Source: a phage
Strand: one strand, 5' to 3'
Length of the DNA: 64,000 nt
Sequence record: PX969468.1
Below are positions 15,246 to 21,402 of this stretch, one piece after another; the stretch's first letter is position 1; each line of letters starts with the position of its first letter. Below the pieces are notes generated by a model that ran no database searches, was not told where the DNA came from, and saw nothing but the letters and a program-made list of their open reading frames with translations. A program made the translations under genes and the position numbers.

Positions 15246-16034
15246 TTACTCGGAAACAGGGGTCCAAATATGATTTGCACGATCCTCGATAAGATTGAGT
15301 GCAATCTGACGACCCAACCCGGAACGAACGACATCATCTGGACTATCAAAGCTGATCATTCCAACCTCAGGATCTGGATGGCGAGTAAAGAAATCCGTCA
15401 CCCATGCAAGGCCAGATTTACCAGGGATGTCACGTTGGCTATTATCACCCATAATTACAAGAGTGGCTTGATCAGAGATCCTTGTGATAATTGACAACAT
15501 TTCTTCAGGGTTAGTTTGCTGTGCCTCGTCAATCAGGACAAAGCATCGCTCATCGAAACTACGACCACGAATGCTTTCAACTTCACAAATCTCTATACGA
15601 CTGTTCTGACCGTCTCCCAGCATTGCGGCAAAAGCACCTTTGCCAACACGGCGACAAATCGTGTCCATCATGCTTCGAAGATAGGGCCACAGTTTCTGCA
15701 TTGCATTTCCAGGTTTAAATCCTGAAGTCTTTCCTGTCTGAACGTAAGGGCGTGCAACAATGATCTTATCAATCTCGTTCTTACGCAGAAGATCACCTGC
15801 ATATGCAGATGCCATGAACGTCTTACCGGATCCAAACACACCGTTTACAATGATAATCTTACGCGACCCTAGATAATCAAGATACTTTTGCTGCTTTTTA
15901 TTCATTGGTCGGAGAGCTGGAGCGGTGTGCTCTCGTTCGTCAGCAAATTTTTCAGCAGCCTTACGCAGGCGATCAGATTTGCGAGCCTCTCTAGCTTCAT
16001 CACGCATGCGTTTTGTTTCTTTAGCTCGACCCAT
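15246..16034 (-). CDS. phoH: PhoH-like ATPase
   Basis: Walker A GVFGSGKTFMA, Walker B VLIDEAQ, and overall PhoH-like sequence. Confidence 0.75.
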   Translation of the reverse strand: MGRAKETKRMRDEAREARKSDRLRKAAEKFADEREHTAPALRPMNKKQQKYLDYLGSRKIIIVNGVFGSGKTFMASAYAGDLLRKNEIDKIIVARPYVQTGKTSGFKPGNAMQKLWPYLRSMMDTICRRVGKGAFAAMLGDGQNSRIEICEVESIRGRSFDERCFVLIDEAQQTNPEEMLSIITRISDQATLVIMGDNSQRDIPGKSGLAWVTDFFTRHPDPEVGMISFDSPDDVVRSGLGRQIALNLIEDRANHIWTPVSE

Positions 16035-16072: not shown

Positions 16073-16423
16073 TTACTGCAATAGTTTTTCAATAGCCGCT
16101 TCCATACTGCTTGCAACAGCCTGAACTCGGATATTCATCTCTTCTTGGTGGATCAGCTCCTTAAGCTCTTTAATGGTAAATTCTTTAGAGAAACCTTCCA
16201 CCATAATCTTGTGTAAGGCTTCTTGCGTGTCTACCTGCAAGAACTTTTCCAGTTTGTTGGCAGAGGCTTCTAAATCAGCCCGAATGCGAGGGTCATCTGT
16301 GCGATTCAGCATTAGGCGTAAGCCATCAAGATTAGTAGAAATAGCGTCTGCATGTTGAGTAACTAACCGTGGCAAAATGAGATCTACAAACTTATTAGCC
16401 AAATCGATACGTTCTTGTGTCAC
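16073..16423 (-). CDS. hypothetical protein
   Basis: Track ORF; GTG start overlaps the stop of the upstream peptide gene. Confidence 0.45.
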   Translation of the reverse strand: MTQERIDLANKFVDLILPRLVTQHADAISTNLDGLRLMLNRTDDPRIRADLEASANKLEKFLQVDTQEALHKIMVEGFSKEFTIKELKELIHQEEMNIRVQAVASSMEAAIEKLLQ

Positions 16424-16533
16424 TGTTGCACCCCCTCTTCATCTTCATGATGTTTCTTTTCACGCTTGTGTTTTTTCTTAAGCTCAAGCGCAATCTCTTT
16501 CTTGTACGCCTTCTTCAAGGCTTTTTTAGCCAT
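16420..16533 (-). CDS. small Lys-rich basic peptide (37 aa)
   Basis: GGAGG RBS; MAKKALKKAYKKEIALELKKKHKREKKHHEDEEGVQQ. Confidence 0.45.
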   Translation of the reverse strand: MAKKALKKAYKKEIALELKKKHKREKKHHEDEEGVQQ

Positions 16534-16597
16534 TTGGCACCTCCTCTGCTTTCATTTTACGATAATTATACCTATCTAAACAAAGCTTTGTCAACAA

Positions 16598-17071
16598 CTA
16601 GTCTACCTGGACCCAACCGCCTGCTACTTTTTTAAACATTCTTTGGTTATCGCTACCTCGGAACGGTTTCTTGGTTGGTAAATCTTTTACATACTTACCG
16701 TCAATGATGATATCAGCCAGTTTAAGAACATCACTAGAGATATGGTCAAATGTGAACCCAGTATATACAAGAATAGTTTTCTTGTCACCAAATTTTTCCT
16801 TAATTTTCTCCATCAGGCTAATAATATCTGGCTCATTATAGTATGCTAAGGGTTCTCCACCCAGCAGAGAGATACCGCACACAGACGGGTTATCTAAATC
16901 TGACAAGATTTTTTGCAAGTCTTCTTCAGTGAACTCTCTTCCCTTATCTTTTGACCAAAATGCCTGATTAAAGCAACCAGGGCAAGCGTGTGGGCACCCA
17001 GATACCCACAAGGCAGTTCTAATACCTGGCCCTTCGGTATAAGATATTTCTGTGTATCCGGCAATGTTCAT
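16598..17071 (-). CDS. nrdG: anaerobic ribonucleotide reductase activating protein (radical SAM)
   Basis: CxxxCxxC-type cluster (GCPHACPGC), GGEPL motif, NrdG size, adjacent to nrdD. Confidence 0.8.
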   Translation of the reverse strand: MNIAGYTEISYTEGPGIRTALWVSGCPHACPGCFNQAFWSKDKGREFTEEDLQKILSDLDNPSVCGISLLGGEPLAYYNEPDIISLMEKIKEKFGDKKTILVYTGFTFDHISSDVLKLADIIIDGKYVKDLPTKKPFRGSDNQRMFKKVAGGWVQVD

Positions 17072-17193
17072 AGATACTCCGCATCACATTCAGGACAATG
17101 CCAAATAAAATCATCAAGTGCCTTGCACCAACGAAGATTGCACTTACAACCGCAGTGTTTACAAATTTTTACTTTAAAGCCACCAGATGACAT
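17068..17193 (-). CDS. small Cys-rich zinc-ribbon-like protein (41 aa)
   Basis: AAGGAG RBS at 5 nt; seven Cys (CKHCGCKC...C...CPEC); stop overlaps the nrdG start. Confidence 0.5.
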   Translation of the reverse strand: MSSGGFKVKICKHCGCKCNLRWCKALDDFIWHCPECDAEYL

Positions 17194-17254
17194 AACAACT
17201 CCTTAATTTACAACGGACTGAAGGGCTAGAATAAAGCTGGCCCTTTGTGTGTTA

Positions 17255-18415
17255 TTATTTATTAGCAAATTTCTTCAAATGTTCTTCTACTAGCTCGAAT
17301 ACCTCCGGTCTGTAGTAGAAGAACTCTCGACAGCCATCAAACTTCTCTGTGAAGTTGATTTTGTATTGGCTCAAGGCTTGGTGCATAGCTTTTTCTAAAG
17401 TTTGCATGTCGTCTGTTGTTCCTTCCCAAGTTTTTATAACATGTAGATCAGAGAATCTAGCACCAGCTTTTTTAGCTCTTTTTAACACATCTTTTCTTCG
17501 TTCATCTACCCGGACACTCACACCAATTTTCATCATAGTTGGTACTTCCAGATCGTCAACCATGATATAAAGGCTACCATGTTCATGAGATAAGAAGCCG
17601 ACTTTAGCACATTTTTGACAGCCAGCTTTTTGGTTGATGTGGACAAACGGTTTTTGTGTGAACTCCCCGTGAATCGGACAGATGATAGTGACCTCTGTCT
17701 CCCTATTAACATATTCCACCCCGGAATAATCGTATTTATCTTTATGGATAGCTCTGGCTCTTGCCTCAAACCTTTTAGCCACCTCAGATGCTTTCTTTCT
17801 CTGCGTCTTCCTACTAACCTCGGCCACCTTCTTCTTCCCGCACTCGGGGCAACCTTTTCCACTTGGTGCATGGTCATGAGGTCTTTGTGGGAAGTGAGCA
17901 CCACATGTATTACAGATTATCTCCACTTTATCATTACCGGTTTTATAATTTACAAGAGAGTAATCATACTTATCGCCATGAAGCGCTTTTGCCTCAGCGA
18001 TCCACTCTTCAGTAGTCTTTCTCTCAGTTCCTCCACACTTACGGCAACCCCCCTCGCGGAGATGGTTATCAGGCTTTTGCTCAAACTCGCCGTGAACAGG
18101 ACAAACAATCACAACTTTAGTTTTAGCATTTACATACTCTACCTTAGAGTAATCATATTTATAATTATACTTAGCCTCGGCCTCCGCTTTAAATTTTTCA
18201 GCAGAAGCCGCTCTTTCTGCTTCAATCTGACATTTTGGGCAACCCTGTTTTTTACGGAGGTGATCTCCAAGAGTTTTCTTAAATTCTCCATGCTCAGGGC
18301 ATATAATTACAACCTTGGTGTGTGCACCCACATATTTGACTTTGGAATAATCATATTTATCACCATGAACTGCTTTCGCCCCCTCTATAAAATCTTCGGT
18401 TGTAAGTTTTCTCAC
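17255..18415 (-). CDS. repeat protein: four tandem ~60-aa zinc-ribbon-like modules plus C-terminal T5orf172/GIY-YIG-like domain (possible mobile endonuclease-like protein)
   Basis: Four repeats of YDYSKV.YV...TKVVIICPxHGEF...HL...GCxKC; C-terminus LYIM...MKIGVS...R...DLHVIK...REFF. Family assignment is from memory. Confidence 0.45.
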   Translation of the reverse strand: MRKLTTEDFIEGAKAVHGDKYDYSKVKYVGAHTKVVIICPEHGEFKKTLGDHLRKKQGCPKCQIEAERAASAEKFKAEAEAKYNYKYDYSKVEYVNAKTKVVIVCPVHGEFEQKPDNHLREGGCRKCGGTERKTTEEWIAEAKALHGDKYDYSLVNYKTGNDKVEIICNTCGAHFPQRPHDHAPSGKGCPECGKKKVAEVSRKTQRKKASEVAKRFEARARAIHKDKYDYSGVEYVNRETEVTIICPIHGEFTQKPFVHINQKAGCQKCAKVGFLSHEHGSLYIMVDDLEVPTMMKIGVSVRVDERRKDVLKRAKKAGARFSDLHVIKTWEGTTDDMQTLEKAMHQALSQYKINFTEKFDGCREFFYYRPEVFELVEEHLKKFANK

Positions 18416-18481: not shown

Positions 18482-19744
18482 TCAGCAACCACAACTTCCG
18501 TAGTGCTTAACTCGCTCGATAACTTCCGCTTGCTTACCTTTATTGTAAGGACGGGAGTTAGGACTGGAAAGGTATCCAGATACACGCCTGATCACACTGA
18601 TCGTACCTTCCTCATGGTTTCCACAACAAGGGCATATAAAACCTCTTGGAGAGGCTTTAAATTCTCCCTGGAAACCGCACTTGAAGCATTGGTCAACAGG
18701 CTGGTTTATACCGAAGTACATAATGTGTTTATACCCGAAGTCAACAAGAGCCTCTAAAGCATCCAGGTTGTTTTTCAGGTTAGGTGTTTCTACGTATCCG
18801 ATGTTGCCACCAGAGGAGATCATAGCAAAACCTTCCTCATACTCCCACTTATCAAAAGGAGAGCTATTTATCCATACTGGCTGATGGAAACTGTTGGTGA
18901 GATATTCATGCTCGTGCTTCAACACTTCCGGATATTCACGATCCAGACAGGTTGCAGCTTTATAGCATAGACTCTCAGAAGGAGTGCCGTACAAGCTAAA
19001 TGCTAGTCTACTTTCCTTCTTGTATCGCTCACAAGCATCTCTCATGTGCTGAAGGATTTCAAGAGCTAAAGCCTTGTCACCCTCTCTACCCAAAATCTGA
19101 CAGGTTTCATACACACCGATATACCCAATACTGATGGAAGCGTACCCGTCATAGAAGAGTTTATCAATACTCTCTTCAGGATCCAGGCGAGCAAGAGCGC
19201 CTTCACACCACATGATGGGGTTCTGCCCTGCCTTTGTTCCTTTTAGACGATTAACCCTTACAAGGTGAGCCTCGTATGCAAGATCCAAGTATTCGTCAAG
19301 AACTGCAAAGAAATCAACACCTTCCGTCTTGGCTTTTGCCGCAATCATTGGCAGGTTAAGGCTAACAACACCTAAGTTAAATCTACCAAGGTATTTCTCC
19401 TCGCCTGTTTCCAAGTCATTGTATTTGCTAAGAAAACTCCGGCAACCCATGCTCGTTACTTTGCCATCTGTCGAGCCTGTCACTTTTCTATTTAGTGGTA
19501 CAGATACGAAGTCAGGGTAGATACGTTCTGCACAGCATTCCAGAGCTAATCGTTTCAAATCATAGTTAGGATCCCCAGGGTTCATGTTGACACCCTCTTC
19601 CAGGAAGAACAGCACTTTAGGGAACACAGGTGTGATACGTTCTTCACCAAGACCCATTTTGTGGACTTTCAAGTAGTTTTTGGTAATCATTCTACCAAAG
19701 ACCGAGGTATCCAGTCCTAAACTTAATGTGATGAATGGAGTCTG
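18482..19744 (-). CDS. nrdD: anaerobic ribonucleoside-triphosphate reductase, exon 2
   Basis: In-frame extension upstream of the track ATG reads QTPFITLSLGLDTSVFGRM..., continuing T4 NrdD-like sequence; glycyl-radical motif RVSGYL and CxxC pairs at the C-terminus. Confidence 0.7.
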   Translation of the reverse strand, partial: QTPFITLSLGLDTSVFGRMITKNYLKVHKMGLGEERITPVFPKVLFFLEEGVNMNPGDPNYDLKRLALECCAERIYPDFVSVPLNRKVTGSTDGKVTSMGCRSFLSKYNDLETGEEKYLGRFNLGVVSLNLPMIAAKAKTEGVDFFAVLDEYLDLAYEAHLVRVNRLKGTKAGQNPIMWCEGALARLDPEESIDKLFYDGYASISIGYIGVYETCQILGREGDKALALEILQHMRDACERYKKESRLAFSLYGTPSESLCYKAATCLDREYPEVLKHEHEYLTNSFHQPVWINSSPFDKWEYEEGFAMISSGGNIGYVETPNLKNNLDALEALVDFGYKHIMYFGINQPVDQCFKCGFQGEFKASPRGFICPCCGNHEEGTISVIRRVSGYLSSPNSRPYNKGKQAEVIERVKHYGSCGC

Positions 19745-20541
19745 CTGTCTCCTCTCTGTGTTTCCACAGGGCCAGACTATCTCTTACTCTACTTCAATAA
19801 GATAATAACCCTTTATTGTGAGATGCTTACCTTCGGCATTTCCTTCGATAGCCCTATGAACGTTACCTACGTTCAAATTTAAGGCTTTTGCACAGGCATA
19901 AAGTGAAGGATATTCACCCACCAAGGTTTTCCCTTTATATGCCTGCACTTTCCTATAGCACTTACCTGGACAAAGTCCTGTTCGGAAAGCATGTCTCTTA
20001 TTATCTTCCGGCAAAACCCACTCTAGGTTAGACGGATGATCATTCAATGTATTGCCATCTTTATGATTCACTTCCCAGTTTTCAGGATCTTCTGGGACAT
20101 CTGGCAAACAATACAAGGCAACAATCCTTGAGGTTTGGATTCGAATCTTTTTACCTTTGTGGTTGAAAGAGTACATATAACGGCGTTTAACATGCTTGTT
20201 ACCTTTTCCATAACCTCCCCACAATATTGGGTGTAGCATTCCACGTTTTCCGTATACGTTTCCAACCTCATCAATCACATAGTTTGATTCTTCACCATTA
20301 AGAATGATCTTTTTCATAGAGCCTCTCCATTTCGAAGTTAGTATTTCAACTAACCCCTACACTACTTGGTTCAGAAATGTTTGTCAAGCATCTCTGCCTT
20401 TCGTTAGTCGTTACAACCGTTCCAACTCCTGTAAGAACTAGTCACGGGATTGGCATAGCTTTCGCCTTAGCGTTCCCCGTTAGCCGGATTTACCGACCCC
20501 TCTTATGAGGTTAGGAGAGTTTTACAACGGCCAGTTTGTTA
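19745..20541 (-). mobile_element. putative group I intron interrupting nrdD (about 797 nt) carrying an HNH endonuclease ORF
   Basis: Exon 1 ends ...TSVNG on a U; exon 2 resumes at QTPF after a G; the interval holds 224 nt non-coding, an HNH ORF, and 39 nt. T4 nrdD is known to carry a group I intron. Confidence 0.65.
19784..20317 (-). CDS. HNH homing endonuclease (intron-encoded)
   Basis: HNH motif VNHKDGNTLNDHPSNLEWVLPEDNKRHA. Confidence 0.65.
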   Translation of the reverse strand: MKKIILNGEESNYVIDEVGNVYGKRGMLHPILWGGYGKGNKHVKRRYMYSFNHKGKKIRIQTSRIVALYCLPDVPEDPENWEVNHKDGNTLNDHPSNLEWVLPEDNKRHAFRTGLCPGKCYRKVQAYKGKTLVGEYPSLYACAKALNLNVGNVHRAIEGNAEGKHLTIKGYYLIEVE

Positions 20542-21402
20542 ACCGTTGACAGAAGTTAACGTATTGATTTGGTAGAGCAAAGTCTGCATACTATCAAACA
20601 CGTCTTTATCTGTCATTTGCATTGCAACAGTCTCAGCATCTGGCAACCAATGTTCCTGACAAAATTTAAGGTTCTTCTCGTAGGTTGCTTCAGCATACTG
20701 TGCCAGATAATGATCAATATGGCTCATGGTCTGACCACCATATTGAGCACTAGCTACTGCACTAGAGATTTGGCTAAGGATTGTTGTTGCAACCCCTATT
20801 GACTTCGGCTTACTGACATGGGCGTTGCCAATGTTGAATCCGTTTTCCAGCATATCCGGATAATTTACCAAACAACAGTTTGTTAACGGACTGATCAGGT
20901 AGTCAAGATCATGCACATGGATGAAGCCTTTGTTGTGCTCTTCGGAGACACGGTCTGGCAGGATCTGTGTTGATGCAAGATGTTTGCTAAGGATGCCTGC
21001 AAGCAGGTCACGATGAGTATGAACATGATTAGTAGGCTTATTTGCGTTTTCTTTTGTAAATTCATCACAAGTTCGATCCAAGAAGCCACTAATATCTGCA
21101 AGCAGTTTTCCACCTGCCTCTCTGTTATTATCTCTTGTCTGTCTGTACTGGATGTATTCTCTGGCTGCACATTTTAAACCCATATCCATAAGAGCATCTT
21201 CAACAAGGATATGGATATTTTTTACAGAGATCGTGCACTGATCGGTTGGTAGATTGTTAGCAACAACTTCATTAACCGCACAGGCGATCCGGTAAGCTTC
21301 TTCTTCAGTATGTCCAGACTCAAGTAAGGCGGACTCTGCCGCCTTGATCACCTTAATTCCGTTATAGAACTCTTCTCTACCGTCCCGTTTTACAACTTTC
21401 AC
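20542..21402 (-). CDS. nrdD: anaerobic ribonucleoside-triphosphate reductase, exon 1
   Basis: ATP-cone N-terminus (KVVKRDGREEFYNGIKVIKA); ...KGFIHVHDLDY...GFNIGNAHVSKPKSIGVATTI... matches T4 NrdD from memory; ends at an in-frame stop inside the intron. Confidence 0.7.

Follow-up and report, generated by a model that had tools for sequence, protein, structure and literature searches.

A conserved cysteine-rich micro-gene next to nrdG in Vequintavirus phages

Two classes of ribonucleotide reductase have small redox helpers, YfaE in class Ia and NrdI in class Ib. Here we examine a 41-codon open reading frame (ORF; hereafter the micro-ORF) that lies between nrdD and nrdG, the class III ribonucleotide reductase genes, in a 64,000-nucleotide stretch of phage DNA (sequence record PX969468.1). 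This whole stretch, called the window below, belongs to Vequintavirus, the rV5-like myoviruses of E. coli. Like the genes for YfaE and NrdI, the micro-gene is small and sits among ribonucleotide reductase genes, and its product might in principle help to maintain a cofactor. It differs from them in having no sequence relationship to either protein and in not being kept with nrdDG beyond one genus; it also occurs in phage ACG-C91, which was not among the 60 NrdG tblastn matches listed of 2,237.

Small metal-binding proteins provide a second point of comparison. Rubredoxins have a CxxCG...CPxCG domain of 45-55 residues, and desulforedoxin, at 36 residues, is a size precedent for the micro-protein. 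Zinc ribbons have two CxxC (or CPxC) knuckles spaced by about 15-20 residues, and the window micro-protein resembles zinc-ribbon and rubredoxin-type proteins in its pair of knuckles, C-x2-C-G ... C-P-x-C (CKHC and CPEC, separated by 18 residues). Unlike them, the common allele of the micro-protein has C-x-C-G (CKC) as its first knuckle, and the family has three extra invariant Cys. Rubredoxin differs further, since the micro-protein has 38-41 residues, carries Asp rather than Gly after the second knuckle and has no Pfam match. A metal site of the zinc-ribbon or rubredoxin type would nevertheless fit the pattern of the window allele, and its arrangement of Cys suggests that the micro-protein probably binds metal.

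The micro-gene and the constraint on its product

Comparison with related phages indicates that the micro-ORF is a genuine gene whose amino-acid sequence is subject to strong purifying selection. It occupies positions 17068..17193 on the minus strand (41 codons, seven of them for Cys, with the ATG at 17193..17191 and the TGA at 17070..17068), and its product is the 41-residue sequence MSSGGFKVKICKHCGCKCNLRWCKALDDFIWHCPECDAEYL, with Cys at residues 11, 14, 16, 18, 23, 33 and 36. A Shine-Dalgarno sequence, AAGGAG (17204..17199, minus strand), precedes the ATG with a 5-nucleotide spacer, and the TGA overlaps the ATG of nrdG (17071..17069) in an ATGA junction at 17068..17071 (minus strand). A GGAG within Ala-Glu codons of the micro-ORF (17077..17080, minus strand) lies 5 nucleotides ahead of the nrdG ATG and, by its placement, is likely the Shine-Dalgarno sequence of nrdG; since it would serve nrdG while lying inside the micro-ORF, these two codons would be under dual constraint. 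The first-pass annotation of this DNA had described 41 residues, seven Cys, an AAGGAG ribosome-binding site and a stop codon overlapping the nrdG start, all of which are present in the sequence. It placed the feature at the right coordinates but left the minus strand unmentioned, and the translational coupling to nrdG that it proposed fits the arrangement in the window.

Cys content is not what identifies this gene. Seven Cys occur in 2 of the 397 window ORFs of 30-60 residues, and Cys richness by itself is within chance expectation for window ORFs. Rather, we judge the micro-ORF to be real because of comparative evidence: a frame preserved across indels, presence in 127 records and a low ratio of non-synonymous to synonymous differences per site (pN/pS). 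A tblastn search with the micro-protein matched 133 phage records, with coverage of 80% or more in 127, and the micro-ORF is found in about 125 Vequintavirus records. The common allele encodes 38 residues (MSSGIYKICKCGCSCNLRWCKALDDFIWHCPKCDAEYL); two indels, one of 6 and one of 3 nucleotides, separate it from the window allele, and both preserve the reading frame. A form of 53-54 residues, with a Lys/Glu-rich N-terminal extension and again overlapping nrdG, is found in three metagenomic lineages (L005, L006 and L009). The junction with nrdG is ATGA in relatives that share the gene arrangement of the window (configuration A, below) and GTGA in L006. Every allele is preceded by a Shine-Dalgarno sequence despite unrelated upstream sequence (AGGAGG in the V5 type, TAGGAGA in L005 and L006, and GAGGA in ACG-C91).

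Nei-Gojobori counts made on a 28-codon core of the micro-ORF gave pN/pS values of 0.02-0.2. Between the window and L005, the core shows 13 synonymous differences and 1 non-synonymous difference (pS 0.92), leaving 27 of 28 residues identical at saturating synonymous divergence. For the same pair, identity is 52% for NrdG, 59% for the N-terminal part of NrdD and 87% for its C-terminal part; because its changes run 13:1 while NrdG and NrdD show lower identities, the micro-protein core surpasses every other coding segment of the locus in conservation. In the aligned extracted sequences each of the seven Cys is invariant, as are the Gly that follows the second Cys, NLRW, LDD, IW, Pro and EYL. The His before CP is replaced by Tyr in several alleles and is therefore not a required ligand. 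By these sequence comparisons the micro-gene, with its product of 38-41 residues, is restricted to rV5-like (Vequintavirus) coliphages, the ACG-C91 copy being described below.

A few records depart from these forms. A 1.47-kb contig from ENA (L104, 652..840) holds a damaged allele in which an in-frame deletion, with its junction at a shared GGTGC, joins residues 1-20 of the micro-ORF to the C-terminal part of a 78-residue ORF found in some relatives (below). The allele of phage Alma (P0005), likewise damaged, has 61 residues, with altered last residues and 20-odd added ones, and retains all seven Cys; since its tail is reproduced by downstream sequence of the type in phage nomine when read one base out of frame, a 1-nucleotide insertion is indicated. 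About 18 records (MG0656xx) are named 'Campylobacter phage' and give C. jejuni as host; in this region they match E. coli Vequintavirus at 97-98% identity, which casts doubt on the host label.

Position relative to nrdG and to other genes

The micro-ORF is intact in both of the arrangements that occur within Vequintavirus. Configuration A, seen in the window and about 86 records with window-type NrdG, has the micro-ORF overlapping nrdG. The type phage rV5 (DQ832317) is one of 33 records with configuration B, in which the micro-ORF ends in TAA and is followed by ~150 nucleotides and then by a 78-residue ORF that is coupled to nrdG. The NrdG of configuration B is divergent in its N-terminal two-thirds and 52% identical overall. 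The 78-residue ORF of these 33 records (3268..3504 in L013, phage nomine) is annotated as 'putative minor capsid protein'. The nrdG coupled to it is a mosaic, with divergent N-terminal two-thirds and a window-like C-terminus, and from its sequence looks like the outcome of recombinational replacement of a segment.

Beyond the genus, the sampled nrdDG loci lack the micro-ORF. The 139-kb contig L025 keeps the synteny of the window, and its NrdG and that of the window are 65% identical; there, the nrdD stop is followed by a hairpin, a Shine-Dalgarno sequence and nrdG, and the micro-ORF is absent. In Certrevirus CB7, Phapecoctavirus and Mosigvirus (T4-like), nrdD and nrdG overlap at their stop and start codons, while Felixounavirus and a Klebsiella phage have unrelated genes 5' of nrdG; none of these carries the micro-ORF. 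Among 80 diverse viral nrdG loci surveyed, nrdD was directly upstream in 32 and the micro-ORF was present in two (both Vequintavirus-like), so that the micro-ORF does not co-occur with nrdD-nrdG across lineages. The first-pass annotation had looked to conservation at nrdD-nrdG loci as a check, and the outcome is divided: the frame is kept in Vequintavirus and two related metagenomic lineages, but is absent from L025, from the other groups and from 78 of the 80 loci. Since L025 and the other sampled nrdDG groups lack the micro-ORF, NrdDG does not need the micro-protein, and these comparisons indicate that the micro-ORF is not obligatorily tied to nrdG. As a separate observation, a 131-residue ORF with six Cys lies directly 5' of nrdG in many Felixounavirus-like contigs (L053, L057-L060 and similar).

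The micro-ORF also occurs next to an entirely different gene. ACG-C91, an SP6-like podovirus (Vectrevirus, 43.7 kb), carries it as MSVFKICKCGCRCNLRWCKALDDVIWYCPKCNTEYL, with all seven Cys. There it lies between the genes for a nucleotide kinase and DNA ligase and is coupled by ATGA to the ligase gene, whose ATG is likewise preceded by GGAG. A tblastn search of phage records for NrdG did not place ACG-C91 among the 60 matches listed of 2,237, and its annotated 8-kb neighbourhood contains no nrd gene, the whole genome not having been inspected; judged from the listed matches and this neighbourhood, the micro-ORF is not confined to phages with nrdDG. In an alignment, the ACG-C91 flanks are like those of phage K1E up to the ATG of the micro-ORF and again from the ATG of the ligase gene; therefore only the body of the ORF was exchanged, as a precise cassette swap. 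The locus thus provides a clean example of a cassette that moved between a myovirus and a podovirus with boundaries exactly those of the ORF.

The Vectrevirus slot between nucleotide kinase and DNA ligase is hypervariable. K1E has in it an unrelated 38-residue CxxC..CxxC ORF (L007, 790..906), and Mt1B1_P10 (L008) an unrelated ORF without Cys, listed as 63 residues from a TTG start. The K1E slot ORF resembles the micro-protein in size and in its coupling to the gene downstream, and the micro-ORF fills the same slot in ACG-C91, but it has no detectable homology to the micro-protein family (such homology was rejected at an hhalign probability of 21% over 9 residues). The K1E ORF itself shows sub-threshold similarity to generic zinc-ribbon families, the Lar family scoring 20.7 against a cut-off of 39.6 bits.

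Given configuration B, the absence from L025 and from the other nrdDG groups, the coupling to ligase in ACG-C91, the cassette swap and the variable slot in which it took place, we favour a reading in which the micro-protein is an autonomous small factor, with a partner other than phage NrdG and an incidental position before nrdG, and we put the chances of this at about even. Ribosomes on the nrdD-(endonuclease)-nrdG transcript would translate the micro-ORF and, after termination, re-initiate on nrdG. The peptide may fold around a metal via its C-x(1-2)-C-G and C-P-x-C knuckles, with three Cys to spare for a second or shared site. As an autonomous, movable cassette, it might act on a host protein or on a component of DNA or nucleotide metabolism, in any case something conserved other than phage NrdG. 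The place beside nrdG would then be a permissive intergenic site that offers free translational coupling, and the micro-protein would be no obligate NrdG subunit. If a defined partner exists, the micro-protein would be among the smallest phage proteins under such constraint and a tractable 38-residue metal-binding module.

Several considerations weigh against autonomy. Extreme sequence conservation is atypical of arms-race host-takeover proteins. Within the genus, the micro-ORF always lies between nrdD and nrdG, even at saturating synonymous divergence, and a functional link would give the same pattern. ACG-C91 is one genome (represented by two database records) in which selection after transfer is inseparable from selection in the donor lineage; the micro-ORF is there again part of a nucleotide/DNA metabolism module; and the E. 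coli host of the phage supplies NrdD and NrdG of its own, so that a reductase-directed function could still apply there. Finally, metal binding and fold are read from the Cys pattern, with no profile match and a structural model of low confidence (below), and the partner of the micro-protein is only postulated.

These same points bear on the proposal, made in the first-pass annotation, that the micro-protein acts as an accessory to the class III reductase. Such a small metal or redox protein would aid NrdG or NrdD of the phage and possibly of the host, either by passing an electron to the [4Fe-4S] cluster of NrdG or by stabilising or loading a metal site, a role that would be comparable to those of YfaE and NrdI. 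It is consistent with the position of the micro-ORF between the two reductase genes, shared by about 125 Vequintavirus records and the divergent L005, L006 and L009, with the ATGA coupling to nrdG in the majority configuration, and with the C-x2-C-G ... C-P-x-C of the window allele. The best-conserved neighbour of the micro-ORF is moreover the glycyl-radical/Zn-ribbon domain of NrdD (the segment 87% identical between window and L005), and in ACG-C91 the micro-ORF adjoins nucleotide-metabolism genes in a phage whose host encodes NrdDG. However, nrdG is uncoupled from the micro-ORF in the 33 configuration-B records, including rV5; the micro-protein is unchanged although NrdG falls to 52% identity between the window and L005; the micro-ORF is lacking in L025, despite its synteny, and in all other sampled phage groups with nrdDG; it is present, coupled to ligase, in ACG-C91, which is missing from the listed NrdG matches; and no Pfam rubredoxin or zinc-ribbon family matches it. 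Our data thus do not support the accessory claim, which we hold to be possible but a good deal short of an even bet. Were NrdG or NrdD the partner after all, the micro-protein would be the first small accessory factor for class III ribonucleotide reductases.

A more specific form of this proposal would make the micro-protein a minimal rubredoxin- or desulforedoxin-like Fe or Fe-S electron carrier that reduces the [4Fe-4S] cluster of phage or host NrdG, frees phage deoxynucleotide synthesis in the anoxic gut from dependence on host flavodoxin and so serves as the class III counterpart of YfaE and NrdI. We consider this improbable; if true, the carrier would be portable enough to serve even a podovirus that relies on host NrdDG.

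The tight junctions also invite the suggestion that the micro-ORF is a regulatory upstream ORF or leader peptide, in which translation itself (for example, through sensing of Cys-tRNA) would set the level of nrdG and the peptide would have no function. The ATGA overlap, the nrdG Shine-Dalgarno sequence within the last codons and the presence of 7 Cys codons in a total of 38-41 agree with such a device. Yet purifying selection acts on nearly all residues, beyond the Cys, and the micro-ORF is intact both where it is coupled to no gene (configuration B) and where a ligase gene follows, which renders a leader peptide distinctly improbable. Still harder to credit is a precursor peptide of the SCIFF or ranthipeptide kind, with NrdG as the modifying radical SAM enzyme. 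A short Cys-rich peptide encoded directly upstream of a radical SAM enzyme gene is indeed the arrangement seen here, but where such precursors have an adjacent SPASM-domain radical SAM maturase, this NrdG is a 157-residue activase paired with NrdD that matches only Fer4_12 and Radical_SAM in Pfam, no NCBIfam model of SCIFF-type precursors matches the micro-protein, and the micro-ORF is also found without an adjacent radical SAM gene. We regard this last idea as scarcely credible.

Database records, profile searches and predicted fold

The micro-gene is already known to databases. Its product matches PHROG 20137 over its full length (E 2.2e-24, residues 1-41 aligned to positions 1-38 of a 38-position profile), and the micro-ORF is annotated as a coding sequence at the same locus in many GenBank Vequintavirus genomes (e.g. 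SOPHIAROSE_118, bas56_0179 and nomine_167). GenBank names are 'hypothetical protein' or, from its position, 'putative anaerobic NTP reductase protein'. The 'ribonucleotide reductase' label on PHROG 20137 reflects position only: the micro-protein has no similarity to NrdD or NrdG, and no experimental basis for the reductase labels was found in the literature. A literature search likewise found no papers dealing with the micro-ORF. In the record of phage Murica, the micro-ORF is left uncalled and a 'terminator' is annotated within it; the corresponding 5-bp stem (17129..17117) was taken as chance. Since some records miss the micro-gene in this way or put a terminator inside it, it should be called in all Vequintavirus genomes.

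Beyond PHROG 20137, profile searches placed the micro-protein in no described family. Pfam gave no family at E<=1 (including no rubredoxin or zinc-ribbon family), NCBIfam matches were insignificant (E 0.3 or worse), PADLOC returned nothing, and neither micro-protein allele matched the Lar-type restriction alleviation model (TIGR03655). The best match in a PDB profile search, at E 3.7, was to a zinc-finger stretch of the PolD DP2 subunit. Derivation from the NrdD zinc ribbon was rejected (hhalign probability 1%, over 7-9 residues). A model from AlphaFold2 (AF2), built on a 6-sequence alignment, contained short beta hairpins at low confidence (predicted local distance difference test score, pLDDT, 56.6; predicted template modelling score, pTM, 0.27), and because of this pLDDT no structural inference was drawn. 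For the zinc-ribbon or metal-handling role that the first-pass annotation suggested, the Cys pattern is compatible, but no zinc-ribbon or rubredoxin profile matches and the AF2 model is of low confidence.

Searches of larger collections recovered essentially the family itself. Exhaustive searching of 1.84 billion representatives with a HMMER profile yielded four matches: two family members, one deletion fusion and one repeat artefact. The last of these (P0008, 248 residues) is a repetitive, low-complexity protein and was set aside as spurious, as was a 42% 'relative' on a 39-kb viral contig (L012), which is an out-of-frame stretch in a tail-fibre-like gene. A word-indexed search of 5.8 billion proteins found the family and generic Cys-knuckle noise, with nothing further. 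Neither the species-representative genomes nor a set of 5,426 E. coli genomes contained a bacterial or prophage copy. The sole 'plasmid' match (CP057073.1 in PLSDB, E. coli, 137.6 kb) is, in keeping with its size, a Vequintavirus genome carrying the 38-residue allele next to nrdG.

The homing endonuclease and flanking genes

The window allele differs from the common one in a way that points to its upstream neighbour. A free-standing homing endonuclease gene of 386 residues (17255..18415, minus strand; T5orf172/MUG113 nuclease domain with DUF723/DUF4379 zinc-finger repeats) is inserted between nrdD and the micro-ORF, and is covered by 2 of 120 related phage records. The same site holds a different, 310-residue T5orf172 endonuclease in nomine and a 404-residue DUF723 protein, a related endonuclease, in L006. 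The 1.1 kb around the micro-ORF is 99.1% identical to SophiaRose and 98.5% to O157 typing phage 14, but megablast identity to most Vequintavirus records begins only at window position 17154 (query 347), inside the micro-ORF. Upstream of 17154, the 3' end of the endonuclease gene, a hairpin, the Shine-Dalgarno sequence and the first ~13 codons are L005/L006-like, while the sequence downstream is V5-type. Because identity breaks inside the micro-ORF and the 5' part is L005/L006-like, the window allele is a chimera of the kind left by co-conversion in homing. According to megablast and the alignments, the chimeric segment (hairpin, Shine-Dalgarno sequence and first ~13 micro-ORF codons) spans 17155..17254 on the minus strand, and in it the first Cys pair is changed from C-K-C to C-K-H-C. 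The stem-loop between the endonuclease gene and the micro-ORF (17219..17247) is conserved, the homologous hairpins in L005 and L006 differing by paired changes. The endonuclease encoded at 17255..18415 brought the donor-type hairpin, Shine-Dalgarno sequence and first ~13 codons into the micro-ORF, and the locus offers a clean example of co-conversion by a homing endonuclease remodelling the 5' end of a neighbouring gene.

Could the micro-ORF itself belong mainly to the homing system, either as a conserved target or landing site, or as a factor linked to the endonuclease? Two different T5orf172-type genes lie directly upstream of it (386 residues in the window, 310 in nomine), the 404-residue DUF723 protein of L006 makes a further case, and its 5' end is a co-conversion tract. 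However, most genomes have the micro-ORF without an adjoining endonuclease, and a role as target would leave both the free variation at synonymous sites and the amino-acid constraint unexplained; we find such a link very improbable.

The nrdD gene is itself interrupted. Its 5' part lies at 20539..21402 (minus strand) and its 3' part, which encodes the glycyl-radical domain, the C-terminal Zn ribbon and a tail ending in ...VKHYGSCGC, at 18482..19690 (minus strand). The insert of ~850 nucleotides between them (19691..20538, minus strand) bears an HNH endonuclease ORF at 19784..20317 (minus strand). In Rfam the insert gave only a weak group I intron match (19754..20041, 28 bits against a gathering score of 50). 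SophiaRose nrdD has a shorter gap of ~300 nucleotides at the insert site, with no annotated ORF, and AlexBoehm nrdD is annotated as a two-piece join. The C-terminal tails of NrdD past ..RVKH vary by lineage (window 18482..18505; L005, L009, L013, L089), and most contain a Cys pair; variants include YGSCGC, TNNGDCCSIY and VGNVDCCPLSK, whereas L005 has just FH, and a tail of EGCGC occurs in an unrelated 39.6-kb contig lacking the micro-ORF. The Cys-containing tail (..HYGSCGC) was considered as a partner for the micro-protein and rejected, since the tails are inconsistent and EGCGC is also found without the micro-ORF.

Downstream, nrdG (16598..17071, minus strand) encodes the 157-residue class III ribonucleotide reductase activase (PF13353, E 9e-43; PF04055; phrog_626, E 1e-54). 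It is followed on the minus strand by ORFs of 37 residues (16420..16533, basic) and 116 residues (16073..16423, phrog_7650) and by phoH (15246..16034). A perfect 12/12 sigma-70 consensus (TTGACA-18-TATAAT) lies at 16594..16565 on the minus strand, directly past the nrdG stop and ahead of the 37-residue ORF. The product of that ORF, MAKKALKKAYKKEIALELKKKHKREKKHHEDEEGVQQ, is very rich in basic and acidic residues, and the ORF overlaps the start of the phrog_7650 gene; it is annotated in relatives and is kept even in L025, the contig without the Cys-rich micro-ORF.

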